Shown in pieces: positions 5,388-52,106 of a stretch of 64,000 nucleotides of DNA (within the stretch, counting starts at the first letter, position 1; each line of letters opens with the position of its first letter). Origin of the DNA: Deltaproteobacteria bacterium (GTDB taxonomy: Bacteria > Myxococcota_A > UBA9042 > PHBI01 > JACKFB01); the NCBI GenBank assembly GCA_020632695.1, contig JACKFB010000014.1, forward strand, positions 6,231-70,230, given 5' to 3'. Position numbers and translations under genes: made by a program. Below the pieces are notes generated by a model, which was not told the origin of the DNA, searched no databases, and was given only the letters and a program-made list of their open reading frames with translations.

Positions 5388-5418
5388 GATCGGGGTCGAT
5401 GGCCGGGGCGGCCGCTAC

Positions 5419-5900
5419 GAGCCTCGCTGGCGGCGCTCCCTCGGGTCAGGCCTGCGACGGGCTGAAGCCCGACTCGGCCTGCCCTCGGTCGCGCCGCCAC
5501 CAGCGAGGCTCTCGCTGGCCGCCTCGGCCATCGCACACGGGGGCGTAGTCGGTCGGGGTTGGGGGTTTGGGTGGCGGGTCGGGATGTCGGGGCTCGGCCT
5601 TCGGCCTCGGGTTGGGGGCGGGCTGCGATCTGGGAGCTCGGCCTTCGGCCTCGGGCTGACAGACGGGGCAGTGACGGGCTTGGCTCGGGCGCGGTACCGG
5701 TCTCGGTGGCGGCGTCAGGCTCAGTGCCGGGCTCGGTGCCGGGCTCAGGCACGATCCGGTCTCGGTCCGGTGGCGGCTCCGGCCTCCGGTCTCGTGTGGC
5801 AGGCTCGGTGGCCTCAGGCTCGGCTCGGTGTCGGGCTCGGATCGGTGTCGGCTCAGGCTCGGCCTCGCTGACGATCTCGGCCTCGGTCTCGTGACTCATC
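5419..5900 (+). repeat. Intergenic repeat element, copy A: nested stem-loop core followed by a G-quadruplex-prone (GGNTCG)n tract
   Basis: The 46-nt core TCGGGTCAGGCCTGCGACGGGCTGAAGCCCGACTCGGCCTGCCCTCG (5441-5487) is identical to that in copies B and C. It is flanked by the inverted repeat GAGCCTCGCTGGCGGCGC / GCGCCGCCACCAGCGAGGCTC (5419-5436 and 5491-5511). It is followed by GGGGTTGGGGGTTTGGGTGGCGGGTCGGG and about 300 bp of GGCTCG-type hexamers. Confidence 0.7.
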
Positions 5901-8140: not shown

Positions 8141-11100
8141 CTACAACTCGAGCAGACGCCACCGCGCGCAGTCGGGGATCTCCTCCAGCGTGCGGCCGAC
8201 CAGGATCACCGCCAGGTCGGAGGCGTAGATGCCGTAGGCCTCGTGGTTGTCGGCGATGGCTATCTCGGTCCAGCTCGCCGGTCGTCGGGTCGGCGTCTCG
8301 CAGCACGATCCACAGCGTGGCCTGGACGTTCCCGGTGGGTCGGGCGAGCGGCCGAAGATGAACACGTGGGTGCTGTTGGTGGCGATGCCGAAGGCCGCGG
8401 CCACGGTCGAGGCAGCCCGGGCCTTCCCAGCGACCCAGCCCGTGGTCGTGCGGCGGCGCAGCGTGCCGTTCCCCCGACGATCCAGGGCTCCGCGCCGACG
8501 TAGGCGATGTCGTGCATGTCGATGCCGATGGGCAGGTGCTCGACCTGCCAGGTCGGAGTCGCCGTCGCTGAACAGCACGCTGATCCACCGTTGTATCCCC
8601 GGCGAGCACCCGACCCGGCGACGGCTCCGGCGTCGGTACGGCCGGCGATGGCGGTGGGGTAAGAGCGCGCCAGCCACCGAGGCCTCAGGTCTGTCAGGCG
8701 CGCCGCAGGTCACCGCCACCGTGCAGCGTCGTCCTCGCGCTCGCAGCGGACGACCCGGATGCCAGCGCGTCGCGGCCGGCGATGTAGTACGCGTCGGTCG
8801 TGGTCCCGTCGTCGAGCGCCGCGCTCCAGACGCCGCTGGAGCCGATCGGCAGCACCGCCTCGAGCGCGTCGGACGTCGCTGCCGACGAGGTCGACGCTGT
8901 CGGAGCCGGGCTCGACGCGGCCGATCTCGCCGTCGACACCCACCGTGAGGTCGCGAGGAGCCCGGTGAGCGCCCAGGGGATGGGCGTGCCGGCCAGCGGC
9001 GACGCGGGGCGGCGCCTGCAGGCGATGCAGCACGCTCCAGATGCCGCCGTCGCCGACGCACTCGTCGCCGACCAGCAGGTAGCGGGTCAGGACGTATAGG
9101 ACCCGCCGAAGCGCGTAGCCTGATGGTGCCCTCCGCCGCCACCGCGCAGGTAGCGTCCCCGAGCGGGACCTGCGCCACCTGGGTGCCCGCACAGCCCACC
9201 CACGCACAGGTCAGGCGCCGTGGCGGCCGTAGCGTCGTCGCAGCTCGTGAAATCAGGGGCGCGCCTCCTGGACGCAGCCCGTCTCCGCGCTGCAGGTGCC
9301 GATGCTGCATCCGCTGCCGTCGTCGCACGCGGCGTCGTTCGGGGTGTGGGTGCAGGCGTCGCCAGTGCAGGCGTCCTGGGTGCAGGCGCCGTCGTCGCAG
9401 GGGCTCGCCGACGCCACCGCAGGTCCCGGCGTCGCAGATCGACGCGGAGGTGCACGGGTCCCCGTCGTCGCACGAGAGGCCGCCGGTGACCGGGCTGCTC
9501 TCGCAGGCGCCCGTCGCCTGGGAGCAGGCGTCGGTGGTGCACGGGTTGGCGTCGTCGCAGTCGGGGGCCACGCCGGGCGGCAGGCGCCCTCGACGCAGAG
9601 GTCTCCCACGGTGCAGAGGTCTCCGTCGTCGCACGCGCCGGCCACCGCCACGTGGCTGCAGCCCGTCCCGACCACGCAGGCGTCGGTGGTGCAGGGGGTT
9701 GCCGTCGTCAGGCCCCGTCGTCAGGCGGAGATGCACCCGCGAGCGGGTCGCACGCGTCGGCGCTGCATGCGGCGCCGTCCTCGCAGCGGCTGTCGCGCGG
9801 CTCGGACACGCACCCTCCAGCGTGCAGAGATCCTCAGTGCACTCGACGGCGTCGCTGCACAGGCGTCGTCCAGCGTCGTGCGGCAGCCCTCGAGGATCGC
9901 AGACCTCCGACGTGCAGGCGACCTCGTCCTGGCACGCCGTGTCGACCGCCGCGTGGCTGCACCTGATGTCCGGCACGCAGGCGTCGAGGTGCAGTCGATG
10001 GCGTCGTCGCAATCGGTCGGGCTCGTCGCTTTTACAGTCCGGACTGGCGGACCTCCGCGGTCGTGCACGGGTCGTTGTCGGGCACGGGGTGCCGTCGTCT
10101 ACGGCGACGGACTCGCACGCTCCGTGACGGAGCTGCAGGCCAGCACCTGGCAGGGGCTCCGTCGACGGCGGGCACACCACCGGCGGCGCCGTCTGGATCG
10201 CACTCGCCGGTCAGGTCAGGCAGCTCCACGCAGTCGAAGGTGGCCCGCAGCGTCGCCGTGCCGCGATCGGCGGCGACGGTGCACTCGCAGACGTTGTCGC
10301 CCGGCTGGCAACCTCCGCCGGAGCACAGGTCGCCGTCGGTGCATGGGAGCCGTCGTCGCACGCGGCGCCGTCGTCAGGCGTGTTCTCGCGCGGTGATCGC
10401 TCGCAGCGGTCGCTGGTGCAGGGTTCCCGTCAGCGCACGGCGAGTCGTCGAGCGTGTGGACGCAGACGCCGTCGGCGCTGCACGCGTCGATGGTGCAAGG
10501 CACGTCGTCGTTGCAGTCCGGCGGCCCGGGCACGCAGACGCCGCCATCGCACGCGTCGCCGACGGTGCACGGGTTACCGTCGTCGCAGGCCCCGACCCGA
10601 GGCGGGTTGCTGGACAGCCGGCGACGGGGTCGCAGGACTCGTCGGTGCACGGTTGCCGTCGTCACAGCTCGCCGCGTCCGGCGTGTGGACGCACTGGCCC
10701 GACTCGCAGGCGTCCATCGTGCAGGCCACCGCGTCCGGAGCAGTCCAGGGCGACGCCGGCGCAGACCCCGGTCGCGCACTGGTCGGCGGTGGTGCAGGGG
10801 TCGCCGTCGTCGCACTCGCCCGTCCACGGCTGGTGCGTGCACCCCTCGGCCTCGGTGCGCGTCGGTCGTGCAGGGTCGCCGTCGTCGCAGTCGGTGGCTT
10901 CGTGGTGCACCGCCCGCCCGCAGACGCCGTTCTCGGTGCAGGGCGAGCCGTCGTCGCAGGCCCCGCCGTCCAGCGGAGTCGCCGCGCAGGGCGCCGTCTG
11001 CGGGTCGCAGGCGTCGCTGGTGCCAGGGTTCGAGTCGTCGCAGGGCAGCACGTCCCCTGGCAGACGCCCGCTGCGCAGGCGTCGTCGATGGTGCGGGGTC

Positions 11101-12646
11101 GCCGTCGTCACAGAGCCCGCGCCGGTGTCGGGCTCGTGCGTGCAGGCCGGTCGCCGCAGCGCAGGCGTCGATGGAGCAGGGGTTCCGATCGCTGCAGTCG
11201 CGCGGCTGACCGCGGCAGGCGCCCTCGTCGTCGCAGCGGTCGTCCAACGAGCAGGCGTCGCCGTCGTCGCAGGCGGCCGCCGAGGACCGTCGCCGCGCAG
11301 AGCCCGGTCGCCGGTCGCAGGCCACCTGCGTGCAGGGGTCGTCGTCCTCGGTGCAGGTGGTGACGGTGCCGGGGTCGATCTCGCAGGCGCGCTCGCCACC
11401 GGGAAGGACACGCAGCGGTTCGCCAGCGCAGAGGTCCTCGGGCGGCGCGCAGTCCTCGTCGACCTCGCAGGGGCAGGTGCTGGCCCCGCCGCCGCAGGCG
11501 CCGGCCTCGCAGACCGTGCCCTCGGTGCAGGGGTCCGAATCGTCGCAAGCGGTCCCGTCGGCCGCCGGCCCCGAGACGCAGCCGCCGCTCACGGGTCGCA
11601 GGACGCCTGCTGACAAGGCGCGTCGGGCAGGCACACGACAGGCTCCCCAGGCGAACACACCCCGCTCCCGGTACACGCCCCACCCCCGCGCGGGGTCGCC
11701 TCCATCGCAAGCGACGCCGACCGCCACCTCGACCACGCACGCCCCCAAGCCATCGCAAGCAGCCACGCCGCACTGAGGATCCACCGCGCCCGGCAGCGGG
11801 CACGGGCTGCCCAGCTCAAGGCCTGCGGCACGCAGAACCCGCCCACACACGCGCTCGGAGCACACGGCAGTCGCCCGCCATCACGCACTATCGCGGCCCG
11901 GGCGCCGGACAATCGCCAGCCGTCGTGCAACCCGATCCCGCATCCGTCTCCACGTCCGGGCCAGTGTCGGTCTCGGTCTCGGTCTCGGTGTCGGTCTCGG
12001 CGTCGGTGTCGGCCTCGGTGTCGGTGTCGGTCTCGGTGTCGATGTCGGTGTCGGTCTCGGCCCCGGCCCCGGCGTCGGTGTCGGCGTCGGTCTCGGTGTC
12101 GGCGTCGGTCTCGGTGTCGGCGTCGGTCTCGGTGTCGGTCTCGGCCCCGGTGTCGGTCTCGGACCCGGTGTCGGTCTCGGACCCGGTGTCGGTCTCGGTC
12201 CCGGTCTCGGTCTCGGTCTCGGCCCCGGTGTCGGTCTCGGTCCCGGTGTCGGTCTCGGCCCCGGTGTCGGTCTCGGCCCCGGTGTCCGAGGCCGCGTCCG
12301 AGGCCGTATCCGCGTCCGCGTCCGAGTCCGAGGCCGCGTCCGCGTCCGAGTCCGAGGCCGTGTCCGCGTCCGCGTCCGAGTCCGCGTCCGAGTCCGTGTC
12401 CGTGTCCGTGTCCGAGTCCGCGTCCGAGACCGCGTCCGTGTCCGCGTCTGGGACCGCGTCCGCGTCTGGGACCGCGTCCGAGACCGCGTCCGAGTCCGCG
12501 TCGGGGATCGGGGAGGCGTCGGCGTCGGCCGTCGGGCCGACCTCCGCCGTGTCCGGGTTCTCCAGGTCGCCTTCCCCGGAGCCGCCCTCACATCCCAATG
12601 CGATGAGGGCCGCTACGGCCACCCACGCCAACCTCGAACCACGCAT
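8141..12646 (-). pseudogene. Lipoprotein with acidic (D/T/S)n linker and myxococcal cysteine-rich repeats, apparently broken by multiple frameshifts
   Basis: A lipobox N-terminus [19 protein letters not shown] is encoded at 12646. A TD/SD/AD-rich linker follows (12600-11890). CDDGDPCT / CDDGNPCTVGDAC-type repeats are then spread over at least three reading frames between 11900 and 8900 (ORFs 10216..11865, 10662..11411, 10032..10361, 9253..9675, 8141..10180). A C-terminal piece is also split across frames (8140-8700). The breaks could be sequencing errors instead of true decay. Confidence 0.45.
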
Positions 12647-13895: not shown

Positions 13896-16057
13896 GACCC
13901 GGCCTCGCCGCCATCCGGGGCGTCGCGTCCCTGGCGCTGCTCCTGTCGCTGCCCTCGCCTCCCGTGCGCGCCGCCGAGCCGCCGCCCGGCGACCTGGCCA
14001 CCGAGCCCGAGCTGGACGACGATGAGGAGGCGACGCTCCCCGAGCCGGACGACGCCGACGACGACGCCGACGAGGACGCTCGAGCCCTCGCCCCCATCGA
14101 CGCCAGCGACCGCCACCAGCTCGCCCTCCTCGCCGACAGCCTGCCGGCCCACGGCGTCCCCCCGGTCCTGGTGCCGCCGCCCGACGCCGACGATCGCGCC
14201 TTCCACGACCTCGCGCGCCGCCTCGCCCGCGTCTTCGCCCCCCGTCGCGACCGGCACGGCGCCCGCCTCGCCGCGCTGCTCGCCACCCGCCCGCTGGCCC
14301 CGGCCATCGAGGCCCTGGTCCCGCGACATCGCCGCTACCGCGCGCTCATGGACGTGCTGGCCCGCGAGCGCAACCAGCTCCTGGCCGGCCAGCCCACCCT
14401 GCCCCGCACCACCTACCGCGTGCAGGCCGGCACCACCGCGCCGGAGGTGGCCCTGCTGCGCCAGCGCCTGCTGATGGAAGGGTACGGCGACCCCGGCGTC
14501 ACCGGCCGCCTCGCCAGCTACTTCGACGACCGCCTCAAGCGCGCGCTCTGGGGCTGGCAGCGAGACCACGATCTCCCCGTCACCATCTGGCTGGACGACC
14601 TCACCCGCGCCCGCCTCAACGCCCCGGTCGCCAGCATGGCCGAGGCGCTGCTCCTGGCGCTCAGCCGCTGGCGGGACATCGGCTTCCGTCAGGACGCCGA
14701 GCGCCAGGTCCTCGTCCACCTCAACGCCCAGCAGCTGGTCGCCGAGCGTGACGGCAAGGCCGAGCTGACGATGCCGGTCAGCGTGGGGCGCTCCGAGCCC
14801 GCCAACCAGACCCCGATGCTGTCCACCCGGCTCGTGAAGGTGACGGCGAACCCCTCGTGGCGCGTGCCCCGACGCATCGTCGACGAGGAGCTGCGGCCGT
14901 CGGTGGCCGACCAGCCGGGGCTGCTCCGGGACCGCGGCTACCTCGTGGACATCAGCCCCGCGGGGCGCTGGCGGGTGATCCTGGGTCCCGGACCCCAGAA
15001 CCCGCTCGGGCGCCTGAAGTTCAGCCTCGCCGGCACCGGCGGCGTGTACCTGCACGACACCCCGGACGCGCGCCAGTTCGACGCCCGCCGCCGCAGCCTG
15101 TCGCACGGCTGCGTGCGCGTGCAGTCGGCGCGGGAGCTGGCGAGCTGGGTGCTGGGCGACGAGGCGGAGCCGCGGCTCGACGCGGCGCTCGCCGGCACGG
15201 CGACCCGGAGCTTCCAGGCCGCCCCCTCCATCCCGGTCCATCTGGTCTACCAGACCCTCACGGTCGACGAGGACGGGCGCGTCCTGCGCTTCCCGGACAT
15301 CTACGACCTCGACCGCGAGGCGCTGGCGAGCATCGACGCCCGCAGCGTGCTCGCCGCGCGTCCGCCGCCGGTGCGGGAGGCTCCGTCGACGCAGGAGGCC
15401 GGGGGCGGGGCCGAGGCCGGGGCCGGGGGCGGGGCCGGAGCCGGGGCCGGAGCCGGAGCCGGGGCCGGGGCCGGGGCCGGAGCCGGAGCCGGGGCCGGGG
15501 CCGGAGCCGGGGCCGGAGCCGAGGCCGGGGCAGGGGCCGGGGCCGGGGGCGAGGCCGGGGCCGGGGCCGGGGCCGGGGGCGAGGCCGGGGCGGTCTACGG
15601 GCTGCGCTTCGCCGTCGTCGACGAGGCCGGGCGCACCGGCTCGCTGGATGGCCACGCCGGCCACCTGCTGGCCGTGATGTTCGCCGGGGAGACCTGCGCG
15701 CCGTGTCACGACCTGGCCCCGCGCGTCGTGACGCTCAGCCGTGAGCTGCTCGCCCGGGGTCAGACCCTCGACTTCGTGGTCATCGACGCCGAGCACCCGA
15801 ACGACGCCCCGCCGCGCCAGTGGGAGGAGGGCATGCCGGCGCCGATCCTGCGGGTCCCGGAGTCGGTGCTGCGCGGCGCGTCGTCGCTGGGCACCATCGA
15901 GGTGTTGCCCACCCTCTGGATCGTCGGGCGCACCGGGGTCCCGCTCTACCGCTACGAGGGGACCGGCGACGAGGTCGTGGCGGCGATGCGCGAGGACGTG
16001 GAGCGCTATCTGGAGGCCGAGGCCCGCTTCCGCACCCGCGCGCGTCCGCTACGCTGA
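13892..16057 (+). CDS. L,D-transpeptidase (YkuD) with peptidoglycan-binding domain, (GA)n linker and C-terminal thioredoxin-like (CAPC) domain
   Basis: It has a signal peptide and an acidic N-terminal region. The PG_binding_1-like segment is LLRQRLLMEGYGDPGVTG...LWGWQRDHDLPV. The YkuD catalytic motif is YLHDTPDARQFDARRRSLSHGCVRV. A 50-aa GAGAGA linker follows. The thioredoxin-like fold carries TCAPCHDLAP. Confidence 0.8.
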   Translation: MRPGLAAIRGVASLALLLSLPSPPVRAAEPPPGDLATEPELDDDEEATLPEPDDADDDADEDARALAPIDASDRHQLALLADSLPAHGVPPVLVPPPDADDRAFHDLARRLARVFAPRRDRHGARLAALLATRPLAPAIEALVPRHRRYRALMDVLARERNQLLAGQPTLPRTTYRVQAGTTAPEVALLRQRLLMEGYGDPGVTGRLASYFDDRLKRALWGWQRDHDLPVTIWLDDLTRARLNAPVASMAEALLLALSRWRDIGFRQDAERQVLVHLNAQQLVAERDGKAELTMPVSVGRSEPANQTPMLSTRLVKVTANPSWRVPRRIVDEELRPSVADQPGLLRDRGYLVDISPAGRWRVILGPGPQNPLGRLKFSLAGTGGVYLHDTPDARQFDARRRSLSHGCVRVQSARELASWVLGDEAEPRLDAALAGTATRSFQAAPSIPVHLVYQTLTVDEDGRVLRFPDIYDLDREALASIDARSVLAARPPPVREAPSTQEAGGGAEAGAGGGAGAGAGAGAGAGAGAGAGAGAGAGAGAGAEAGAGAGAGGEAGAGAGAGGEAGAVYGLRFAVVDEAGRTGSLDGHAGHLLAVMFAGETCAPCHDLAPRVVTLSRELLARGQTLDFVVIDAEHPNDAPPRQWEEGMPAPILRVPESVLRGASSLGTIEVLPTLWIVGRTGVPLYRYEGTGDEVVAAMREDVERYLEAEARFRTRARPLR

Positions 16058-23540: not shown

Positions 23541-24010
<470 letters not shown>

Positions 24011-24175
24011 CGCCATGGGTTCGGTCTCTTGCCGGGGGTTCGGGCTCTCGTTTCGGCGTTGACAACCTGCCACCGGCATTCGAATTTGGGCGGTGATGCG
24101 CGCTCTCGGACCTGCCGCGACGCGTTCGAGACGCTGTGTCGGCTCCTTTGTCGGGCCGAGACACCCCGAGACGCG

Positions 24176-28504: not shown

Positions 28505-28858
28505 ATGTTCGGCCTGGGAACCTGGGAGTTGGCGCTCATCCTCGTGGCGGCCCTCATCTTCATCGGACCGAACAAGCTGCCCGATCTGGCGCGAAACCTG
28601 GGCAAGGGCGTGCGCGAGATGCGTCGCGCGATGGCCGGGTTCGAGCGCGAGGTGCAGGAGGCGTCGCGGCTGGAGGACGAACCGTCCCCGCCCGCGAAGG
28701 CTGACAAGGCCGCGGCGAGCGCCGGCGGCGCGCCCGGCGGCACCGGGGCGGCCTCGGGCGAACCCGGGCCCGATGGTCGCGTCGGTCGTGCGGCTCCGCA
28801 CGCGCCCGTGGCGCCGACGGCCAACGCCGCCCCCGACGCGGAGTCCAAGGACGCGTGA
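28505..28858 (+). CDS. tatB: Sec-independent translocase TatA/TatB family protein
   Basis: N-terminus is MFGLGTWELALILVAALIFIGPNKLPDLARNLGKGVREMRRA (TM helix plus amphipathic helix) with a Pro/Ala-rich tail. Its TGA is overlapped by the GTG of tatC. Confidence 0.8.
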   Translation: MFGLGTWELALILVAALIFIGPNKLPDLARNLGKGVREMRRAMAGFEREVQEASRLEDEPSPPAKADKAAASAGGAPGGTGAASGEPGPDGRVGRAAPHAPVAPTANAAPDAESKDA

Positions 28859-30657
28859 GCGACACCGCGGTCATGTCCTTCCGCGAGCACCTCGCGGAGC
28901 TCAGGACCCGGCTCATCCGCGTCGCGGCCATCCTGGCCGTCGGCTTCTTCGTCTGCTGGTCCTGGCGGATCGAGCTCTTCGGCCTGCTCTCGGGCCCGAT
29001 CGCCCGCGCCCTGGCCGACAACGGCGTCTACCACTTCCAGGCGATCGAGATCACCGAGAGCATCATGGTCTACATCAAGACCTCGCTCGTCGCCGCCGCC
29101 GTCCTCACCAGCCCGCTGACCTTCTGGCAGCTCTGGTCCTTCATCAGCCCGGGGCTGCTGGACAACGAACGCCGCTTCATCGTCCCGGTGACCTTCTTCA
29201 CGGTCATCTTCTTCCTCATCGGCTGCGCCTTCGCCTACGAGGTCATCCTCCCCTTCATCACCGACTGGCTGGTCAAGCTCACCCTCGAGGGCGGCCAGGC
29301 CGATGTCGTGGTGACGCTGCAGAACGCCTACTCCACGTCCATCGTGTTCCTGCTGATCTTCGGGCTCACCTTCGAGCTGCCCCTGGTCATCTTCTTCCTG
29401 GCGCTGTTCGGCATCGTCAACTACCGCAGCCTCCTCCGCTTCTTCCGCTACTTCGTCGTGCTCTCCTTCGTCATCGGCGCGATCCTCACCCCGCCCGACC
29501 CGATGAGCCAGGTGCTGATGGCGGTCCCGCTGAACGTGCTCTACGCGTTCGGCATCCTCGTCGCCTGGGGCGTGGACCGCTCGCGCGGCGAGGACGGGCG
29601 CGCCACGGCGGTCGGCGCCACGGTCACCCGCATCTTCGGCGCCTCCTTGTTGCTGGTCGGCCTCGCGGCAGCGCTGGTGGTGGTGTTCATCCGCAGCCTG
29701 CCCGAGAAGGAGCTCAGCAGCCTGCTGCCGGCGGAGATCACCTGGTTCGTCGGGGCCAACCCCGCGATCATCGAAGAGAACCGCTTGCTGCTGCCCGATC
29801 TTCGCGACCAGCTCGGCGGCTCCCCGTGGCTGGCCGCCCTCGGCGCGGCGGGTCTGAGCGTCGCCGACGTCCATGACGCGGCCCTCGCCGGCACCAGCAC
29901 CGGCAGCCGGGTCCTGCTGGTGCGCGCCGACGGTCTGGGTTTGCGCGTCGCCACCCTGGGCCAGGGCCTGCCCGAGGGCAGCCTGGCGACCCGCGTCGAC
30001 GAGGACACGGTCGCCATCGGCGACGCAGCGCTCGCGGAGTCGGTCGCGGCGGTGGCCCGTGGCGACGTCGACGGTGAGCGGCCCGACGACGACGAGGCGC
30101 GCCTGCTGGTGGCGCTGCGCGGCAGCGGCCCGGTGTGGGCGTGGCTGCCCGAGCCGGGCGCCCACGCCAGCGCGCTGCTGGCCGGCGGCATCGGCAGCGA
30201 GATCACCGCGGCGGGCGGCTGGCTGCGAGGCGGAGAGAACGCCCGGATCTCCCTGGTCTTCCACGCGCCGGACCGCGCCCTGGCCGACGAGCTGGAGACC
30301 CACCTGGACGTGCTGCGCAGCCAGGGCCCCGCCACCGCCGAGAGCCCCCGCGAGGCCGCGCTCGCCCAAGCGCTCGCCGCGCTGGCCCGCGAGGTGAAGC
30401 CCCTGGTCGCCCCCGAGCGCCGCGCCGGCGTCGAGGCCCTCGAGGCCCAGGTCACCGCCCTGCACCCGAAGCAGCCCACCTTCCAGCTCCCGGGCCTCAC
30501 CGCCCTGGGCACCCGCGCCACCGGGTGGGCCTTGCGGCGCCAGGACCTCCGCGTCTCGCTGACCGCCGACCTCGACCAGGAGAGCCTGCGCAGCCTCCTC
30601 CAGCCGCTGGGCCGCGCGCTCACCTCGGGTGCCCTCGCCCCGAGCGACGCCCCGTGA
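28855..30657 (+). CDS. tatC: TatC with a ~350-aa C-terminal extension (extra TM helix plus soluble domain)
   Basis: TatC signatures are HLAELRTRLIR, FWQLWSFISPGL and TPPDPMSQVLMAVPLNVLYAF, within the first ~250 aa. The same frame stays open with strongly GC3-biased codons to 30657. It includes the TM helix IFGASLLLVGLAAALVVVFI. The ORF ends in a GTGA overlap with cstA. Confidence 0.75.
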   Translation: MSDTAVMSFREHLAELRTRLIRVAAILAVGFFVCWSWRIELFGLLSGPIARALADNGVYHFQAIEITESIMVYIKTSLVAAAVLTSPLTFWQLWSFISPGLLDNERRFIVPVTFFTVIFFLIGCAFAYEVILPFITDWLVKLTLEGGQADVVVTLQNAYSTSIVFLLIFGLTFELPLVIFFLALFGIVNYRSLLRFFRYFVVLSFVIGAILTPPDPMSQVLMAVPLNVLYAFGILVAWGVDRSRGEDGRATAVGATVTRIFGASLLLVGLAAALVVVFIRSLPEKELSSLLPAEITWFVGANPAIIEENRLLLPDLRDQLGGSPWLAALGAAGLSVADVHDAALAGTSTGSRVLLVRADGLGLRVATLGQGLPEGSLATRVDEDTVAIGDAALAESVAAVARGDVDGERPDDDEARLLVALRGSGPVWAWLPEPGAHASALLAGGIGSEITAAGGWLRGGENARISLVFHAPDRALADELETHLDVLRSQGPATAESPREAALAQALAALAREVKPLVAPERRAGVEALEAQVTALHPKQPTFQLPGLTALGTRATGWALRRQDLRVSLTADLDQESLRSLLQPLGRALTSGALAPSDAP

Positions 30658-32396
30658 ACGCCGCCCACGCCGCCGCCGCCGCCCTCGCCGCCTACCTCGT
30701 CGGCTACTTCGTCTACAGCCGCTTCCTCGCGAACCGCGTCTTCGGCCTGCGCCCCGACGCCGTCACGCCCGCCCACGCGCTCGAGGACGGCGTCGACTTC
30801 GTCCCCACCCGCCGCGGCGTCCTCTTCGGCCACCACTACGCCTCCATCGCCGGGCTCTCCCCCGTGTTGGGGCCGGCCGTCGCCGTCATCTGGGGGTGGC
30901 TCCCGGCGCTCACCTGGGTGGTGCTCGGCGCGCTGCTCATCGGCTGCGTCCACGACTTCGGCGCGCTGGTCCTGAGCGTCCGCGCCCGCGGCGTCAGCAT
31001 CGGCAAGGTCGCCGAGGGCATCATCGGCAAGCGCGCCAAGACGCTGTTCCACCTCATCATCTTCTTCCTGGTCGCCCTGGGCATGGGCGTCTTCGTGTAC
31101 GTCATCGCCTTCCTCTTCCGCCCGGCCACCGGCGCCGAGGACCCGGCGATCCACTTCCCCCAGGCCGTGCTCCCGTCGGCGGGGCTGATGCTCATCGCCG
31201 CGGCCGTCGGCTGGCTCGGCTACCGGCGCGGGCTGTCGTGGCGCATCCTCACGCCGCTCGGCTTCGGCCTGCTCCTGGCGCTGGTGTGGCTCGGCGTCGA
31301 CCAGGACCTGCTCGCCACCCTCGGCACCGCCGACCCGGCCCGGGCCCCCGGCCAGCTCGGCTGGAGCCTCATCCTCCTGGCCTACGCCTTCGCCGCCGCC
31401 GTGCTGCCGGTGTGGAGCCTCCTCCAGCCGCGCGACTTCCTGAACAGCCTCCTGCTCTACGTCGGCCTCGGCGGGCTGTTCGCCGGCATCTTCGTCCTCC
31501 AGCCCGCCTTCGTCGCCCCGGCCCTGCGCCCCCACCCCGAGGGCGCCCCCAGCCTCTTCCCCTTCGTGTTCATCGTCATCGCCTGCGGCGCCGCGTCCGG
31601 CTTCCACAGCCTGGTCTCCAGCGGCACCACGGCCAAGCAGCTCGACCGCGAGACCGACGCCCGGCTCATCGGGTACGGAGGCATGATCGGCGAGTCCCTC
31701 CTCGGCCTCATCGCGGTGCTCGCCACCACCGCCGGCCTGCTCAGCGCCGACGAGTGGTCGACCCAGTACGCCACCTGGGACAGCGTCAAGGGGCTCGGCG
31801 CCCAGGTCGGCGCCTTCATCCACGGCTCCTCGACCTTCCTCGCGGCGCTGGGCATCGAACGCTACGCGGCCGCCTCCTTCATCAGCCTCATCGTCGTCAG
31901 CTACGCCCTCACCTCGCTCGACTCGGCCACCCGCCTGCTCCGCTACAACCTGGAGGAGATGGGCGAGACCATGGGCATCGGCCTGCTGCGCAACCGCTAC
32001 GTCTCGGCGGCGCTCGCCGTGGGCGCCATCGCCGTGTTCGCCTTCCTGCGCCTGGACGGCAAGCCCGCCGGCCTGGCGCTCTGGGCGCTCTTCGGCACCA
32101 CCAACCAGCTCCTCGCCGGCCTGGCCTTGCTGGCCATCACCCTCTACCTCCTGCGCCGCGGCCGCCTCTGGGTGGTGACCGCCATCCCCATGGTGCTGCT
32201 CCTGAGCGTCACCCTGTGGGCGATGGCCGTGAACATCGTCCAGTTCTACCAGGACCAGGCCTGGCTCCTCCTCGCCGTCGGAAGCCTCCTCCTGGTGCTA
32301 GGCGTCTGGCTGGTCATCGAAGCCGCCCTCTCCGTCCTCCGCTTCCGCCGCTCCGGAGCCCGCATCGAAGGCCTCGACATAGCGCTACCCGGCTGA
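30654..32396 (+). CDS. cstA: Carbon starvation protein CstA family transporter
   Basis: The segment GVLFGHHYASIAGLSPVLGPAVAVIWGWLPALTWVVLGALLIGCVHDFGALVLSVRARGVSIGKVAE aligns with the E. coli CstA N-terminal region. It is polytopic. The GTG start overlaps the tatC stop. It is shorter (~580 aa) than E. coli CstA and lacks the first TM helix. Confidence 0.8.
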   Translation: MNAAHAAAAALAAYLVGYFVYSRFLANRVFGLRPDAVTPAHALEDGVDFVPTRRGVLFGHHYASIAGLSPVLGPAVAVIWGWLPALTWVVLGALLIGCVHDFGALVLSVRARGVSIGKVAEGIIGKRAKTLFHLIIFFLVALGMGVFVYVIAFLFRPATGAEDPAIHFPQAVLPSAGLMLIAAAVGWLGYRRGLSWRILTPLGFGLLLALVWLGVDQDLLATLGTADPARAPGQLGWSLILLAYAFAAAVLPVWSLLQPRDFLNSLLLYVGLGGLFAGIFVLQPAFVAPALRPHPEGAPSLFPFVFIVIACGAASGFHSLVSSGTTAKQLDRETDARLIGYGGMIGESLLGLIAVLATTAGLLSADEWSTQYATWDSVKGLGAQVGAFIHGSSTFLAALGIERYAAASFISLIVVSYALTSLDSATRLLRYNLEEMGETMGIGLLRNRYVSAALAVGAIAVFAFLRLDGKPAGLALWALFGTTNQLLAGLALLAITLYLLRRGRLWVVTAIPMVLLLSVTLWAMAVNIVQFYQDQAWLLLAVGSLLLVLGVWLVIEAALSVLRFRRSGARIEGLDIALPG

Positions 32397-32399
32397 AAG

Positions 32400-32800
32400 G
32401 AACCGAGCCCGGAACCGAGACCGAGACCGAGACCGACCCCGAAACCGAGACCGAGTCCGAGCCCGAGCCCGAGCCCGAGCCCGAGACCGACACCGACACC
32501 GACACCGACACCGAGCCCGAGCCCGAATCGGAGACCGCCACCGAGCCCGCGCCCGAGCCCGCCACAGAAACCGAGCCGACCGAGCCGACCGAGCCCACCG
32601 CCCCCGACCCCGCCCGAGCCCCCACGCCGAGCCCTGAAGGCGCCCGTTCCGAGGCGCCGGCAGCGGCTGCTGCGGGCGTCGTGGGCAAGGAGCGAGCGAG
32701 GGCGCACCGAGTCGGGCTTCAGCCCGTCGCAGGCCTGACCCGAGCGAGCGACGCCGGCCACGGCGCCCGCAGCAGTCGCTGACGGTGCCTCGATCTATAT
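32400..32800 (-). repeat. Intergenic repeat element copy C (inverted relative to copies A and B)
   Basis: The reverse-complemented core is at 32698-32744. Outer stems are at 32658-32678 and 32765-32786. A (GAGACC/GAGCCC)n tract lies at 32405-32640. The element sits between the convergent cstA and mutase genes. Confidence 0.8.
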
Positions 32801-34456
32801 CACCAGGGTTTCTCGATATACCCCAAAGACTCGCCGCATCGTGCCGGCGATCTCGCCCAGGGTGCAGCGGGCTCGGACGGCCGTGACGATGAGCGGCATC
32901 AGGTTGGCGTCGGTCCTGGCCGCCGCCTCGAGCGCCGTCAGGGCGCCCTCGGCCGCTGCCTTGTCGCGTTTCGCGCGCAGCGCCTTCACGCGGGCGCGCT
33001 GCTGCCGCTCGCCCTCGGGGTCGATGCGCTGGATCTCGGGCCGGACGCCCTCGCCGCCGGCGTGCACGTTGACGCCGACCACCTCGATGGCGCCCGAGTC
33101 GATGCCCTGCTGGTAGCGGTAGGCCGTGTCGAGGATCTGCTTCTGGATCCAGCCGGCCTCGATGGCCCGCACGACGCCGCCCATGGCGTCCACCCGCTCG
33201 ATGAGCTCGCGCGCCGAGCGCTCGATGTGGTCGGTCAGGGCCTCGATGGCGTAGCTGCCGGCGAGCGGATCGATGAAGTCGGCCACGCCCGACTCGCTGG
33301 CGATGACCTGCTGCGTGCGGAGCGCTATCTGCGCGGCGTGCTCGCTGGGCAGCCCCAGGGCCTCGTCCAGGCTGTTGGTGTGCAACGACTGGGTGCCCCC
33401 CAGCACCGCCGCCAGCGCCTGGATGGTCACCCGCGCCACGTTGTTGTCGGGCTGCTGGGCCGTCAGGGCCGAGCCCGCCGTCTGCGTGTGGAAGCGCAGG
33501 CGCCGGTTCTCGTCGGTGCAGGCCGGGTGACGCTCGCCCAGCAGCCGCGCCCACAGGCGCCTGGCCGCGCGGAACTTGGCGATCTCCTCGAGGAAGCCGT
33601 TGTGCACGTTGAAGAAGAAGGCCAGGCGGCCGGCGAAGTCGTTGATGTCCAGGCCCGCGTCGATGGCCGCCTGCACGTAGGTCAGCCCGTTGGCCAGGGT
33701 GAAGGCCACCTCCTGGACCGCGTCGCAGCCCGCCTCGCGGATGTGGTAGCCGCTGATGGAGATCGTGTTCCACCGGGGCAGCGCGTCCTTGCAGTAGGCG
33801 AACACGTCGGTGATGAGCCGCAGGCTGGGCCCGGCCGGGTAGATGTAGGTGCCGCGGGCGATGTACTCCTTGAGCACGTCGTTCTGGATGGTGCCGCGCA
33901 GCTTCGCGCCCGACACGCCCTGCTCCTCGGCGCAGACCTGGTAGAGCGCCAGCAGGATGGGCGCCGTGGCGTTGATGGTCATCGAGGTGGACACGCGGTC
34001 CAGCGGGATGCCGTCGAAGAGGACGTGCATGTCCTCGATCGAGTCGATGGCCACCCCGACCTTGCCGACCTCCCCGGCCGACAGGGGGTCGGTGGAGTCG
34101 AGGCCCATCTGGGTGGGCAGGTCGAAGGCGACGCTCAGCCCCTTGCCGCCCGCCGCCAGCAGCATGCGGTAGCGCTCGTTGGACTCGGCGGCCGTCCCGA
34201 ACCCGGCGTACTGGCGCATCGTCCACAGCCGGCCGCGGTACATGGTGGGCTGCACCCCGCGCGCGAAGGGCGGCTCGCCCGGAAAGCCCAGGTCGCCCTC
34301 GAGGCGCGCGCTCTGCTCACCGGCGTCGCCGGGCAGGTAGAGCGGCTTGATCTCCGTGCCGTCGGACAGCACGAAGCGCTCCTTGCGCAGCCCGCTGCTG
34401 GCCGCCTGCGCCTCGTACTGCTCCTCGAGCCACGCCTCTTCACGCCTGTCCGGCAT
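32795..34456 (-). CDS. Methylmalonyl-CoA mutase family large (catalytic) subunit lacking a B12-binding domain (MCM N-terminal-domain or IcmA-like)
   Basis: Its ~555 aa are homologous to the MCM alpha TIM-barrel, including the [29 protein letters not shown] signature region. There is no C-terminal cobalamin-binding (DxHxxG) domain. The ATG overlaps the end of the BCCP gene by 14 nt. An alternative start lies at 34498. Confidence 0.8.
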
Positions 34457-34976
34457 CACCGATCTCCATGAGCACCGCGTCGGCCTCCACCGAGCCACCG
34501 GCGGTGACGTGCACCGCGGTCACCACGCCCGCGCGGCCCGCCTTCACCTCGTTCTCCATCTTCATGGCCTCGATGATCAGCACGGGCTGGCCCGGCTCGA
34601 CCACGGTGCCCAGGGGCGCCAGGATCTTCACCACCAGCCCGGGCATCGACACCGTCACCCGCCCGTCGTCGTGCTCGTCGGCCCCCGCGCCCAGCCAGGC
34701 GTCGCGCTCGGACACCGCCACCACGTCGACCCGGTGCTCGCCGATGACCGCCGTCACCGCCCCGTGGCTGGCGGGCACCATCCGCACCGGGAGGCCGCGC
34801 CCGTCCTCCAGCAGCAGGTGCGCCGCCCCCGCCTCGCCCGTGGCCCGTTGGAAACGCAGCTCCCGCGCCGGCTGCCCCTCCTGCTCGATGCGCGCCCGCA
34901 CGCTCCCGGCGTCGGCCTCCAGGATCTCCACCAGGGCCTCGACCCCGTCGATCCACGTCACGTAACGTCCCGACAT
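34440..34976 (-). CDS. Biotin carboxyl carrier / biotinyl-domain protein
   Basis: The C-terminal biotinyl domain carries the EAMKMENEV attachment motif. The start ATG overlaps the accC stop (TGATG). Confidence 0.8.
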
Positions 34977-36574
34977 CAGAGCCCCCCGCCGAGCTGGCGC
35001 CGCAACCCGTCGAGCGCCCACGGCGTCCACTGTCCCCCGCCGGCGACGCCCCCCTCGACCTGTCTGGGCGCCCGCGCGTCCACAGCCAGCGCCGCCAGCA
35101 CCCGCGCCAGGTCCTCGGTCGCCTCGTCGGCCACCGGCGGCGTCACCCGCGGCAGCTCGGCGAGCAGCCCCGTCGTGTAGCGACCCGCGCGAAAGGGCGC
35201 GCTCTCGAGCACGTGGTGCAGCAGCGGCAGGTTGGTGTGGATGCCCTCGATGGCGTACTCCCGCAGCGCCGCCAGCCCGCGCGCGATCGCCGCGTCGCGC
35301 GTCCCGGCCGACACGATGAGCTTGGCCACCATCGGATCGTAGAGGCTGGACACCTCCGAGCCGTCCTCGACCCCGTCGTCCACGCGCACGCCGGGCCCGC
35401 GCGGCGGCCGGTACGCCGTCAGCACGCCGGGCGAGGGCATGTCGTTCTGGTAGGGGTCCTCGGCGTACACCCGCAGCTCGATGGCGTGGCGCCTGGCCAC
35501 CAGCGAGGCCTGGTCGAAGGGCAGCGGCAGCCCCGCCGCGACCTGGAGCTGGGCGTCGACCAGGTCCACGCCGAAGGCCTCCTCGGTCGCGCAGTGCTCG
35601 ACCTGCAGCCGCGTGTTCATCTCCAGGAAGTAGAAGGACTCCGACTGGTCCACCAGGCACTCCACGGTGCCGGCGCCCTCGTAGCCGACCGCCCGCGCCG
35701 CCTGGACCGCCATCTCGCCCATCTGGCGCCGGGTCTCCTCCGACAGGTTCGGCGCCGGCGACTCCTCGATGACCTTCTGGTGGCGGCGCTGCACCGAGCA
35801 CTCCCGGTCCCCGACCCACACCACGTTCCCGTGGCGGTCGGCCAGGAGCTGCACCTCGATGTGCCGCGGACCGACGATGGCCTTCTCCACGTAGACCGCG
35901 TCGTCGCCGAAGGACGAGCGGGCCTCGCGCCGGGCGCCCTCGAAGGCGCTGGCGAGCTGCTGGGGGTCGGCGACGATGCGCATGCCCTTGCCGCCGCCGC
36001 CCGCCGCCGCCTTCAACATGATGGGGTACCCCACCTCGGCGGCCACCCGGGTGAGCTCCGCCAGGTCCGCCAGGGGCTGGGCGGTGCCCGGGACCACCGG
36101 CACGCCTGCGGCGATCATCGTCTGGCGGGCCAGGGTCTTCTCGCCCATCAGCTCCATCGCCTTGGCCGGCGGGCCGATGAACACCACGCCGGCCTCCTCG
36201 CACTGGCGCCGGAAGCCGGCGTTCTCACTGAGGAACCCGTACCCCGGGTGGATGGCCTGGGCGCCGCTGCGCCGCGCCACGTCGAGGATCCTGTCGCCCC
36301 GGAGATAGCTCTCGCGCGAGGGCGGCGGCCCGATGCACCACGCCTCGTCGGCCATGCGCACGTGCAGCGCGCGCCGGTCGGCCTCGGAGAACACCGCCAC
36401 CGTGCGGATGCCCCGCGCCCGGCACGCCCGGATCACCCGACAGGCGATCTCCCCGCGGTTGGCGACGAGCACCTTGTCGAAGAGCGGGTTCCCGTCCTGC
36501 GTCAACGCCACACCCTCACCTCCCGACGGGTACGCCCGCGGGTCTAACTCGCGAGCGGCGCGCCGCGCAAGCAC
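34976..36574 (-). CDS. accC: Biotin carboxylase subunit of an acyl-CoA carboxylase
   Basis: Motifs are FDKVLVANRGEIACRVIRA, GGGGKGMRIV and EMNTRLQVEH. The C-terminal ~80 aa resemble a BT/linker region. The true start may be the internal GTG near 36510. Confidence 0.85.
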   Translation of the reverse strand: MLARRAARELDPRAYPSGGEGVALTQDGNPLFDKVLVANRGEIACRVIRACRARGIRTVAVFSEADRRALHVRMADEAWCIGPPPSRESYLRGDRILDVARRSGAQAIHPGYGFLSENAGFRRQCEEAGVVFIGPPAKAMELMGEKTLARQTMIAAGVPVVPGTAQPLADLAELTRVAAEVGYPIMLKAAAGGGGKGMRIVADPQQLASAFEGARREARSSFGDDAVYVEKAIVGPRHIEVQLLADRHGNVVWVGDRECSVQRRHQKVIEESPAPNLSEETRRQMGEMAVQAARAVGYEGAGTVECLVDQSESFYFLEMNTRLQVEHCATEEAFGVDLVDAQLQVAAGLPLPFDQASLVARRHAIELRVYAEDPYQNDMPSPGVLTAYRPPRGPGVRVDDGVEDGSEVSSLYDPMVAKLIVSAGTRDAAIARGLAALREYAIEGIHTNLPLLHHVLESAPFRAGRYTTGLLAELPRVTPPVADEATEDLARVLAALAVDARAPRQVEGGVAGGGQWTPWALDGLRRQLGGGL

Positions 36575-36720
36575 CGCCGCCCCCGCGGCGCCTCGCCTGG
36601 ACCCTGGCGCCCCCCAACGCGCTCCGGGCTGTGCATCGGCGCGGGCGCGGTGCTACGGTCCGCGCCCCGGCCCTCCCCGACGGTGCCCCCGTGACCCAGC
36701 CAAGCGCCCCACGAGAGCCC

Positions 36721-38133
36721 ATGCCCGATCCCAGCGCACCCGCCGGGCGCCCGCCCGCGGCGACCCGCGACGCCCTGACGCGCACCGAGCACCTGCTGGT
36801 ACACCTCGCCGGCGAGCTCTACACCAAGAGCGCCCGTACCCGCCGACGCTTTCGCGGGCTGCTGATCGCCAACCTGCGCGCGGCGCTGGCCGCCCGCGGG
36901 GTGGCGGCGACCGTGCTCAGCGATGGCACGCGGATGCACGTGCTCAGCGACGAGCTCGACGCCGCGGCGGCCGTGGCCGCCGACGTGTTCGGCGTGCACC
37001 GGGTCGAGCGGGTGGTCCCGCTGCCCTACGACAGCCTCGACGCGCTGGCGACCGCCGTCGCCGAACGCGCGCGCCCCCGCGTGGCCGGCCGCACCTTCGC
37101 CGTCCGCGTCCACCGGCGCGGCACCCAGGCCTGGACCTCCATCGACGCCAACCGCGCCATCGGCAGCCAGCTCATCGCCGCCAGCCGGGGCGTGGACCTT
37201 CGCCAGCCGGAGGTCGAGGTGCGCGTCGACGTGCCCGACGAGGTCGCCTATCTGGTGGACGAGGCCCGCCCGGGGGCCGTGGGCCTGCCCATCGGCGCTC
37301 AGGAGCGCAGCCTCGTGTTGCTCTCGGGCGGCTACGACTCGGCCGTCGCCGCCTGGCAGCTCCTGCGCCGCGGCAGCCCGGTCGAGTTCGTCCACTTCCG
37401 CCTGGAGTGCTCCGCCAGCGAGCACGCCGCGCTGGTCGCCCAGACCCTGACCGAGCGCTGGGGCGCCGGCTACGACCCGCTCCTGTGGATGGTGGACTTC
37501 CAGCCGGTCAAGGAGGCGCTGCTCGCCAAGGTCAGCTCGCGCAATCGCCAGGTGGTGCTCAAGCAGCTCATGGTGGCGGCCGCCGACGCGCTCGCCGACC
37601 GCCTGGGCATCCACGCGCTGGTCACCGGGGACGCCGTCGGCCAGGTCTCGAGCCAGACGGTGAGCCACCTCGCCGCCATCGACGCCTGCGCTCACCGGGC
37701 GGTGCTGCGTCCGCTCTGCGGCGCCCTGAAGGACGAGATCATCACCCGCGCCCGCGCCATCGGCACCGCCGATATCTCGGCCCGCGCCCAGGAGGTGTGC
37801 GACCTGTCGAGCGGGCCGGTCTCGGTGTCGGCGCGCTGGACCCAGCTCGAGCGCGCCCACCGCGAGCTGCCCGCCTCCCTGGTCGCCGATGCCCTCGCCG
37901 GCGCCCAGGTCGCGAGCCTGGCCGACTGGTTCCCGGGCGCCGACATGGTCCCCGTCGTCGAGGAGCCGCCCCCCGGCATCCCGCTGGCGATGGCCAGCGG
38001 CCCCCTCCCCGACGAGGGCCCCGTCGCGCTCCACGGCGCCCGCGCCGCGTCGACCGCCTGCCGCCTCGCTCGCGAGGGCCGCCGCGTCTGGGTGGTCCTG
38101 CGCCCGGGCGGCCCCCCCGAACCCCGCCCCTGA
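36721..38133 (+). CDS. thiI: tRNA sulfurtransferase ThiI-like (THUMP plus PP-loop ATPase) with C-terminal extension
   Basis: The PP-loop motif is LLSGGYDSAVAAW. The N-terminal THUMP-like region is LVHLAGELYTKSARTRRRF. It is divergent from accC. Confidence 0.75.
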   Translation: MPDPSAPAGRPPAATRDALTRTEHLLVHLAGELYTKSARTRRRFRGLLIANLRAALAARGVAATVLSDGTRMHVLSDELDAAAAVAADVFGVHRVERVVPLPYDSLDALATAVAERARPRVAGRTFAVRVHRRGTQAWTSIDANRAIGSQLIAASRGVDLRQPEVEVRVDVPDEVAYLVDEARPGAVGLPIGAQERSLVLLSGGYDSAVAAWQLLRRGSPVEFVHFRLECSASEHAALVAQTLTERWGAGYDPLLWMVDFQPVKEALLAKVSSRNRQVVLKQLMVAAADALADRLGIHALVTGDAVGQVSSQTVSHLAAIDACAHRAVLRPLCGALKDEIITRARAIGTADISARAQEVCDLSSGPVSVSARWTQLERAHRELPASLVADALAGAQVASLADWFPGADMVPVVEEPPPGIPLAMASGPLPDEGPVALHGARAASTACRLAREGRRVWVVLRPGGPPEPRP

Positions 38134-42319: not shown

Positions 42320-44256
<1,937 letters not shown>

Positions 44257-47400: not shown

Positions 47401-48300
47401 GCGGTTGTCCCGGTCCAGGTTGCGCTGGAAGCCGACCTCGGCGCCCGAGCCGAAGAGGCTGGTCGAGCCACCCATCACCTGGCGCATCTCGCCCCAGCCG
47501 TCGCCCAGGGCGTGGCTGTTCTGGACCGTCGGCAGCGCCTTGAAGCCGTTGAGCCCCTTGCGCCACTCGTTGCGGTGGGAGTAGCGGATGGTGCCGTGAT
47601 CGACCGGCTTCATCTGGGTGAAGGTGATGTGGTCGTGGGCGTTGATGAGGCCGGGAGAGACCACCGAGGCGGGGCAGGTCAGCACCGTCGCGCCCGGCGC
47701 CTGGTCGGCGCAGTCGCAGCCCACGCAGGTGATGGTGCCGTCCACGACCAGGACCTGACCGCCCGGCTGGATGCCCGTCGGCAGGAGCAGGTCGCCGCGG
47801 ATGAGGAGCGAGGCGTTGCCCGGGGTCACCGTGCAGGTGCCCGGGGTGCCCGGGAGCGAGGCGCCGCAGGGATCGGGGGCGGTGTCGGTGTCGGTGTCGG
47901 TGTCGGTGGCCGTGTCGGTGGCCGTGTCGGTCGCCGTGTCGGAGGCCGTGTCGGAGACCGTGTCCGGGGCCGTGTCCGAGGCCGCGTCCGAGGCCGTGTC
48001 CGAGGCCGTGTCCGAGGCCGTGTCCGAGGCCGTGTCCGAGGCCGTGTCCGGGGCCGTGTCGGACGTCGTGTCCGGGGCCGTGTCGGACGTCGTGTCCGAG
48101 GCCGCGTCGGACGTCGTGTCCGAGGCTGTGTCGGAGGTCAGGTCGCCCTGGGCGTCGGTGTCCGTCGCGATGATGTCCGCGAGGCTTCCATCGTCGCCGT
48201 CGGCGCGGCAAGCTGTCAGGATCGAACCCAACGCGAGCAGCACCACCGCGCCTGTCACCGTCGCGCCCGTCGAGCGGGCGTGCCGAAGCGTGCACTTCAT
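44413..48300 (-). CDS. Large lipoprotein with acidic TSD linker, amidohydrolase-like domain, thrombospondin type-3 repeats and C-terminal lamin-tail domain
   Basis: The lipobox is LGSILTAC. The (TSD/ASD)n linker spans about 110 aa. The metal-binding-like motif is [14 protein letters not shown]3 calcium-binding repeats are [20 protein letters not shown] and [28 protein letters not shown]. The LTD signature is [37 protein letters not shown]. Confidence 0.8.

Positions 48301-50570: not shown

Positions 50571-52106
<1,536 letters not shown>

Follow-up and report, generated by a model that had tools for sequence, protein, structure and literature searches.

We analysed a three-gene operon in a stretch of 64,000 nucleotides (nt) from a Myxococcota metagenome-assembled genome (MAG) labelled 'Deltaproteobacteria bacterium' (assembly GCA_020632695.1, contig JACKFB010000014.1, positions 6,231 to 70,230). 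This whole stretch is referred to below as the window. The operon encodes a biotin carboxylase, a biotin carrier protein and the catalytic (large) subunit of an acyl-CoA mutase that depends on cobalamin (B12). Most likely, it is a conserved operon for two enzymes of the pathway from propionyl-CoA to succinyl-CoA (methylmalonyl-CoA pathway), with the partner subunits of both enzymes unlinked; the activities are predicted from the sequences. We favour the methylmalonyl-CoA pathway because of the residues of the proteins and because of the gene contexts of the orthologues, which include a methylmalonyl-CoA-specific carboxyltransferase (TIGR01117), the epimerase, the B12 subunit and MeaB. The finding itself is ordinary, since known kinds of enzymes are encoded in an operon layout that recurs. 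What appears to be an incomplete operon would thus be explained as a normal conserved piece of the pathway, which has little import beyond annotation.

Given the G+C content of about 74% and the many spurious long open reading frames (ORFs), we based the gene calls on a model of codon usage that had been trained on the window itself. All three genes of the operon are real. They are located on the minus strand in the order biotin carboxylase (34976-36511), biotin carrier (34440-34976) and mutase catalytic subunit (32795-34456). The TGA of the carboxylase gene (34978-34976) and the ATG of the carrier gene (34976-34974) have an A in common (TGATG), and the ATG of the mutase gene (34456) is located 14 nt 5′ of the stop codon of the carrier gene, which gives an overlap of 17 nt if the stop codon is included. 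These overlapping start and stop codons suggest that the three genes are translationally coupled. The initial annotation of this DNA had named a biotin carboxylase, a biotin carboxyl carrier protein and a mutase lacking the B12 domain, with the TGATG and 14 nt overlaps; the Pfam and NCBIfam matches described below and the sequence bear this out. The mutase and the carrier are identical to the GenBank proteins MCB9729931.1 and MCB9729932.1, respectively, and a matching locus in the sibling MAG GCA_020632735.1 was found via the carrier protein.

The mutase protein (553 amino acids) matches PF01642 from position 4 to position 512 of the profile (length 512) with 712 bits (cutoff 22.1), and TIGR00641 with 752 bits (cutoff 303.8). 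The solved structures that it matches are 2-hydroxyisobutyryl-CoA mutase HcmA (4r3u_A) with 520 bits and the methylmalonyl-CoA mutases of human (496 bits), M. tuberculosis (492 bits) and P. shermanii (467 bits). Five positions were compared in an alignment with these structures. Where the P. shermanii enzyme (1req_A) has Tyr89 and Arg207, the window mutase has Tyr83 and Arg201. The enzymes of human and M. tuberculosis likewise have Tyr and Arg there, in contrast to Ile and Gln in HcmA. Gln191 (in the motif GTIQND) corresponds to Gln197 of the P. shermanii enzyme and Tyr237-His238 to Tyr243-His244. At all five positions the residues are the same in all three solved methylmalonyl-CoA mutases. 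We take Tyr89 and Arg207 to be the residues that hold the carboxylate of the substrate and set methylmalonyl-CoA mutase apart from isobutyryl-CoA and 2-hydroxyisobutyryl-CoA mutases; Tyr243-His244 and Gln197 are the catalytic positions. The substrate-specificity residues, by which it had been proposed to place the mutase, thus follow the pattern of methylmalonyl-CoA mutase. This alignment settles the type, and the protein is predicted to be the large subunit of a two-subunit adenosylcobalamin-dependent methylmalonyl-CoA mutase.

Large subunits of this kind occur without a B12-binding domain, and none was found in the window mutase with Pfam and NCBIfam. The C-terminus (GVYRETLVI) is the same end point as that of HcmA and of the 120 best homologues, which are 520-613 amino acids long and have PF01642 as their sole Pfam domain in all cases except one (P0081, which also contains PF05833). 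Because the mutase ends where its homologues end, the gene model is correct, and its product is a large subunit that stands alone. Such homologues carry the NCBI name 'acyl-CoA mutase large subunit family protein', and stand-alone large subunits from several phyla share 55-87% identity with the window mutase. The known two-subunit acyl-CoA mutases (Kosmotoga and Keratinibaculum as well as HcmA/HcmB, 4r3u) have the same build, that is, a large subunit of about 550-560 amino acids with PF01642 only and the same end; identity of the window mutase to large subunits from many phyla is 62-65%. The window mutase differs from HcmA in its specificity positions, which are Tyr and Arg.

Two further possibilities for this protein had been raised in the initial annotation. 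The first is a B12-binding domain fused to the mutase and missed owing to a frame continuation past the stop codon; it is ruled out by the end points of the homologues and by the lack of B12-like coding in any frame. The second is a pseudo-enzyme, which is ruled out by the intact catalytic and substrate-binding residues.

The biotin carboxylase is 511 amino acids long if translated from the GTG at 36511, which is preceded by a GGGAGG Shine-Dalgarno sequence 7 nt upstream. A TTG two codons later (36505) would give a protein of 509 amino acids, the form called in the sibling MAG, and the longest possible ORF starts at 36574 and encodes 532 amino acids. Pfam identifies the domains Biotin_carb_N, CPSase_L_D2 and Biotin_carb_C, and the NCBIfam model NF006367 is matched with 605.5 bits (cutoff 597). 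The top solved relatives are alpha subunits of propionyl-CoA carboxylase (PCC), namely 6ybp_G, which is matched over residues 1-472 with 499 bits, and 3n6r_A. Alignment to 6ybp_G showed that the motifs GGGGKGM, RRHQKVIEE (with HQK), EMNTRLQVEH and ELRVYAEDP are intact; for the roles of the ATP-grasp motif residues we presume those of the E. coli biotin carboxylase.

The carrier protein (178 amino acids) has a Biotin_lipoyl domain (PF00364) at residues 107-172 (55 bits) with the biotinylation motif EAMKMEN, which is unchanged in all 17 carrier orthologues aligned. Its approximately 100 N-terminal residues have no Pfam match of their own. A profile of the 17 orthologues (positions 3-167 of 169) covers residues 513-681 of the Ruegeria PCC alpha subunit 3n6r_A with an E value of 1.2e-29, and it also aligns with residues 562-728 of human PCCA and residues 502-665 of the Methylorubrum PCC alpha subunit. 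Among the 17 orthologues, matches to BT domain families were obtained for PCC_BT (PF18140; five orthologues, best E value 1e-4), BT_MCC_alpha (four) and ACCA_BT (two). Since the carboxylase matches residues 1-472 of a PCC alpha subunit and the carrier profile residues 513-681, the two proteins are, judged by these alignments, together one PccA-type alpha subunit that is cut just before the predicted BT barrel. With this probable BT domain, the window pair would have the domain order carboxylase-BT-carrier of PccA/PCCA (3n6r, 6ybp, 7ybu); unlike in these, the alpha subunit of the window consists of two polypeptides and the gene for the beta subunit is not adjacent. The BT domain fastens the alpha subunit onto the hexamer of beta subunits (carboxyltransferase) in the published holoenzyme structures. 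Therefore, the carboxylase/carrier pair should need a PccB-type carboxyltransferase. In GenBank the carrier is named 'hypothetical protein H6744_16950', after its locus tag. This label is an under-annotation, and on the basis of the domain content and the orthologue profile the name of MCB9729932.1 can be corrected to biotin carrier with a probable BT domain, half of a split PccA.

The initial annotation had pointed out that a carboxyltransferase, a B12 subunit and MeaB are lacking nearby, and this holds for all 64 kb. With Pfam the domains Carboxyl_trans, B12-binding and MeaB are absent from the window (approximately 42 predicted genes and the ORFs of the region 5400-11900). A six-frame tblastn search of the window with real sequences of carboxyltransferase, B12 small subunit, MeaB and epimerase from related loci gave a best match of 27 bits (E value 0.016), and in the spacer of 398 bp behind the mutase gene no match to B12 subunits was obtained by tblastn. 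A search for homologues of the small subunit, with the Kofleriaceae protein as query, returned only very conserved matches (78-93% identical), of which none was assignable to the source MAG or to contigs of its relatives. The partner subunits are probably encoded elsewhere in the genome, of which the window covers 64 kb.

The triad of genes with common or overlapping boundaries is present in Myxococcota MAGs in which the mutase homologue is 79%, 75% and 67% identical to the window protein. One of these three loci retains the neighbours thiI, cstA, tatC and tatA; the flanks of the others differ. A wider survey was made with one genome per species and comprised 80 loci with a related mutase gene. 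The window carboxylase and carrier were mapped onto these loci, ORFs were called and clustered, and the clusters were named by NCBIfam and re-checked with tblastn. Carboxylase, carrier and mutase genes are directly adjacent in 13 of the 80 loci, mostly from Myxococcota together with one labelled 'Proteobacteria bacterium' (L024). Since many related genomes retain this gene order, with boundaries that overlap or abut, the arrangement is not due to chance.

Six loci (L017, L022, L045, L060, L061 and L077) link the genes for carboxyltransferase, carboxylase and carrier to the mutase gene. Four of these clusters stand tight against it (L017 from Thermodesulfobacteriota, L022, and L060 and L077 from Gemmatimonadota); in L045 and L061 the carboxylase genes are approximately 4 kb away. 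The carboxyltransferase encoded immediately upstream of the carboxylase genes belongs to the PccB/MmdA family and there to the methylmalonyl-CoA-specific subfamily TIGR01117 (780-837 bits). A carboxyltransferase gene is found beside the mutase gene in six loci (Methylomirabilota, Rokubacteria and Binatia). In 15 loci, which belong to Dehalococcoidia, Kofleriaceae, Haliangium and bacterium 3DAC, the genes linked to that of the mutase encode the B12 small subunit (TIGR00640) and MeaB (TIGR00750), and often also the epimerase (TIGR03081). A carboxyltransferase is combined with the B12 subunit and MeaB in L032 and L036, and a biotin carboxylase together with the B12 subunit and MeaB was found in none of the 80 loci.

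Linking carboxylase genes to the gene for the mutase large subunit is at least as common as linking the B12 subunit to it. The tight coupling of a carboxylase to a mutase, which had been considered unusual in the initial annotation, is therefore not unusual according to the locus counts of this survey (13 + 6 + 6 versus 15 with B12 subunit and MeaB); the layout recurs in several phyla. The mutases were also placed in a neighbour-joining tree, which was calculated without bootstrap and is thus indicative only. In it, the loci with the directly adjacent triad and the window form one clade, and the versions containing a carboxyltransferase fall into separate clades. The window operon looks like a vertically inherited form in which the carboxyltransferase gene is unlinked. 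In our literature searches no publication was found that describes the triad of carboxylase, carrier and mutase.

Some of the surveyed loci have additional features. In the two Gemmatimonadota loci, L060 (8161-9507) and L077 (8150-9457), the carboxylase gene is separated from the carrier and mutase genes by an inserted gene for an RlmD-type 23S rRNA methyltransferase. The upstream carboxyltransferase of L061 (2874-3871) matches as three successive pieces, which points either to a frameshifted pseudogene or to assembly errors in the MAG. In a Firmicute (L004, GCA_900198705.1), what remains of a B12 small-subunit gene behind the stand-alone mutase gene is a short piece (93 bits), with a fragment of a DDE transposase after it (11818-11976 and 12193-12588); an insertion seems to have disrupted the gene for the small subunit.

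The reaction sequence that we propose is as follows. The 511 amino acid protein would act as ATP-dependent biotin carboxylase, and the 178 amino acid protein would contribute the BT barrel and the biotinyl carrier domain. Together with an unlinked PccB-type carboxyltransferase they would convert propionyl-CoA to (S)-methylmalonyl-CoA, which an unlinked epimerase would turn into the (R)-form. The large subunit of the mutase, together with an unlinked B12 small subunit of approximately 135 amino acids that is loaded by the G-protein MeaB, would then rearrange (R)-methylmalonyl-CoA to succinyl-CoA. The flux would presumably run in this direction, in the catabolism of propionate, odd-chain fatty acids, valine and isoleucine. 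The carboxyltransferase gene may be unlinked because the alpha subunit serves several beta subunits, as is the case in actinobacteria and archaea. If the partner genes are found, the metabolic reconstruction of uncultured Myxococcota would have to include a route for propionyl-CoA that depends on B12, and with it a requirement for cobalamin supply.

Several observations weigh against this assignment. The single best solved match of the mutase is the 2-hydroxyisobutyryl-CoA mutase and not a methylmalonyl-CoA mutase. The scores of the carboxylase against propionyl-CoA, methylcrotonyl-CoA and acetyl-CoA carboxylases (499, 491 and 478 bits) barely separate the three, and the window carrier by itself remains below the threshold of PF18140 (PCC_BT). 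In no member of the clade is any of the four partners encoded less than 10 kb from the triad, and all four are absent from the window. In addition, a sigma-70 consensus was not found in the spacer of 209 bp in front of the operon (36512-36720), where the promoter is presumed to be located, and a terminator scan on the 3′ side gave nothing above chance, with one weak hairpin (32590-32574, minus strand).

The first two of these observations would agree with enzymes of another branched-chain or hydroxy-acid route. The mutase would then be a 2-hydroxyisobutyryl-CoA, isobutyryl-CoA, pivalyl-CoA or ethylmalonyl-CoA mutase, and the carboxylase and carrier would form a methylcrotonyl-CoA or acetyl-CoA carboxylase. 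HcmA is the top structure match (by 520 to 496 bits over the human methylmalonyl-CoA mutase), HcmA and IcmA are likewise large subunits of approximately 560 amino acids without a B12 domain, and the carboxylase scores do not tell a propionyl-CoA from a methylcrotonyl-CoA carboxylase. However, the specificity positions hold Tyr and Arg as in the three solved methylmalonyl-CoA mutases, and not Ile and Gln as in HcmA, and orthologues at 55-65% identity have the genes for the epimerase, MeaB and methylmalonyl-CoA-subfamily carboxyltransferases as neighbours. For these two reasons we rejected the identification as 2-hydroxyisobutyryl-CoA mutase, and we regard such another route as a whole as improbable. 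An ethylmalonyl-CoA mutase is not separable by these residues alone; against it counts that the known ethylmalonyl-CoA mutases are fused proteins. The initial annotation had proposed a split module of a propionyl-CoA or ethylmalonyl-CoA pathway. The part from propionyl-CoA to succinyl-CoA is retained here; the ethylmalonyl-CoA part is not, since residues and orthologue contexts favour methylmalonyl-CoA.

The mutase reaction is reversible, and the operon might thus work in the fermentative direction from succinyl-CoA to propionyl-CoA, with the carrier serving a methylmalonyl-CoA decarboxylase or a transcarboxylase. A layout of that kind exists among the surveyed loci, since L036 encodes mutase, B12 subunit, MeaB, epimerase, carboxyltransferase and carrier without a biotin carboxylase. 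In the window, however, the operon starts with the gene for an intact ATP-grasp biotin carboxylase, which appears to be translationally coupled to the others, the probable BT domain of the carrier is typical of carboxylase alpha subunits, and membrane subunits of a decarboxylase were not found nearby when the window genes were searched with Pfam. We therefore consider the fermentative direction very improbable.

The conserved overlapping gene boundaries and the linkage of carboxylase and mutase genes, repeated in several phyla, might also reflect a physical supercomplex (metabolon) of carboxylase and mutase that channels methylmalonyl-CoA. Yet linkage of genes for consecutive steps of a pathway needs no physical complex, the epimerase step intervenes between both reactions and its gene is outside the operon, and no unusual domain or extension that could serve for docking was found in the three proteins. 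Such a supercomplex is highly unlikely. The same low probability is given to the proposal that the Myxococcota clade has either a physical complex of carboxylase and mutase or a split alpha subunit that is shared by several unlinked carboxyltransferases. If this were the case, carboxylation and rearrangement of propionyl-CoA would be co-regulated or channelled in a manner unreported for the canonical separate enzymes.

The poorest explanation, hardly credible to us, is an orphan remnant, in which the genome would lack the partners and the three proteins would be non-functional or recruited to an unrelated role: it would fit the lack of partners near the triad and the GenBank name of the carrier, but the genes are intact, ordered and overlapping in at least 13 species-level genomes, with mutase identities from 87% down to approximately 62%, and the catalytic residues and the biotinylation motif are all retained. 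The conservation of the triad and of these residues therefore points to purifying selection on the known activities.

A precedent for scattered subunits is found in the archaeon Metallosphaera sedula. As listed in table 1 of PMC7078158, the genes Msed_0147 (AccC) and Msed_0148 (AccB) of its acetyl-CoA/propionyl-CoA carboxylase are adjacent and the carboxyltransferase Msed_1375 (PccB) is unlinked. The mutase is split as well, the catalytic subunit Msed_0638 being encoded far from the B12-binding subunit Msed_2055 (the same table; Han et al., 2012, as cited there and in PMC6759758). Like M. sedula, the window has separate carboxylase and carrier genes side by side. In contrast to M. sedula, where the carboxylase/carrier pair and the mutase are encoded in separate places, the three window genes overlap; in addition, the mutase gene of M. 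sedula adjoins the epimerase gene, which the window operon lacks. The window comes from a bacterial genome (a Myxococcota MAG), in which the pathway probably serves catabolism and does not belong to an autotrophic cycle.

Among the bacteria, the operon is closest in layout to the pccB-accC-accB-mcmA clusters of Thermodesulfobacteriota, 'Deltaproteobacteria' and Gemmatimonadota MAGs (L017, L022, L045, L060 and L077), which have the same gene order and often overlap; in contrast to these, the window clade lacks the leading carboxyltransferase of the PccB/MmdA family. It also differs from the loci of Dehalococcoidia, Kofleriaceae and bacterium 3DAC, since small subunit and MeaB are not encoded near the window mutase.

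Upstream, the spacer separates the operon from the divergent gene thiI (36721-38133, plus strand; Pfam ThiI), a neighbour that is also found in loci L003 and L085. On the other side, a spacer of 398 bp (32397-32794) between the mutase stop codon and cstA forms the 3′ boundary of the operon. The gene cstA (30654-32396, identified with Pfam) is convergent with the mutase gene. A tandem repeat scan of this spacer revealed an (ACCGAG)n hexanucleotide array of approximately 30 copies (32402-32586), so that the 3′ side is indeed closed by a repeat element and a convergent cstA as initially described. Pfam analysis of the window genes showed Myxococcota-like surroundings, with Ser/Thr kinases, TPR proteins, DsbA-like lipoproteins and low-complexity hexamer repeats.

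At least eight G+C-rich repeat arrays are distributed across the window (7911-8121, 11967-12520, 15397-15591, 23729-24012, 32402-32586, 43577-43692, 47900-48137 and 50704-50941). They repeat every 6, 12 or 18 nt, and their units are related to CCGAGA, ACCGAG or TCGGTC. Most of the arrays are located inside predicted genes (L,D-transpeptidase, Ser/Thr kinase, amidohydrolase/LTD protein and the gene at 11888-12622), where they would encode low-complexity linkers. The region 5400-11900 (6.5 kb) contains almost no confident genes under the codon-usage model and has a strong negative GC skew at 6001-8000. Long ORFs are present there on both strands; they have no Pfam match except for a weak match to a Dictyostelium repeat in 8141-10180 (minus strand). 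The TatC homologue encoded at 28855-30657 (plus strand) is 600 amino acids long, of which only residues 11-225 form the TatC domain, leaving a C-terminal extension of approximately 370 amino acids. Similarly long TatC genes (579-610 amino acids) are located at the same position in relatives.

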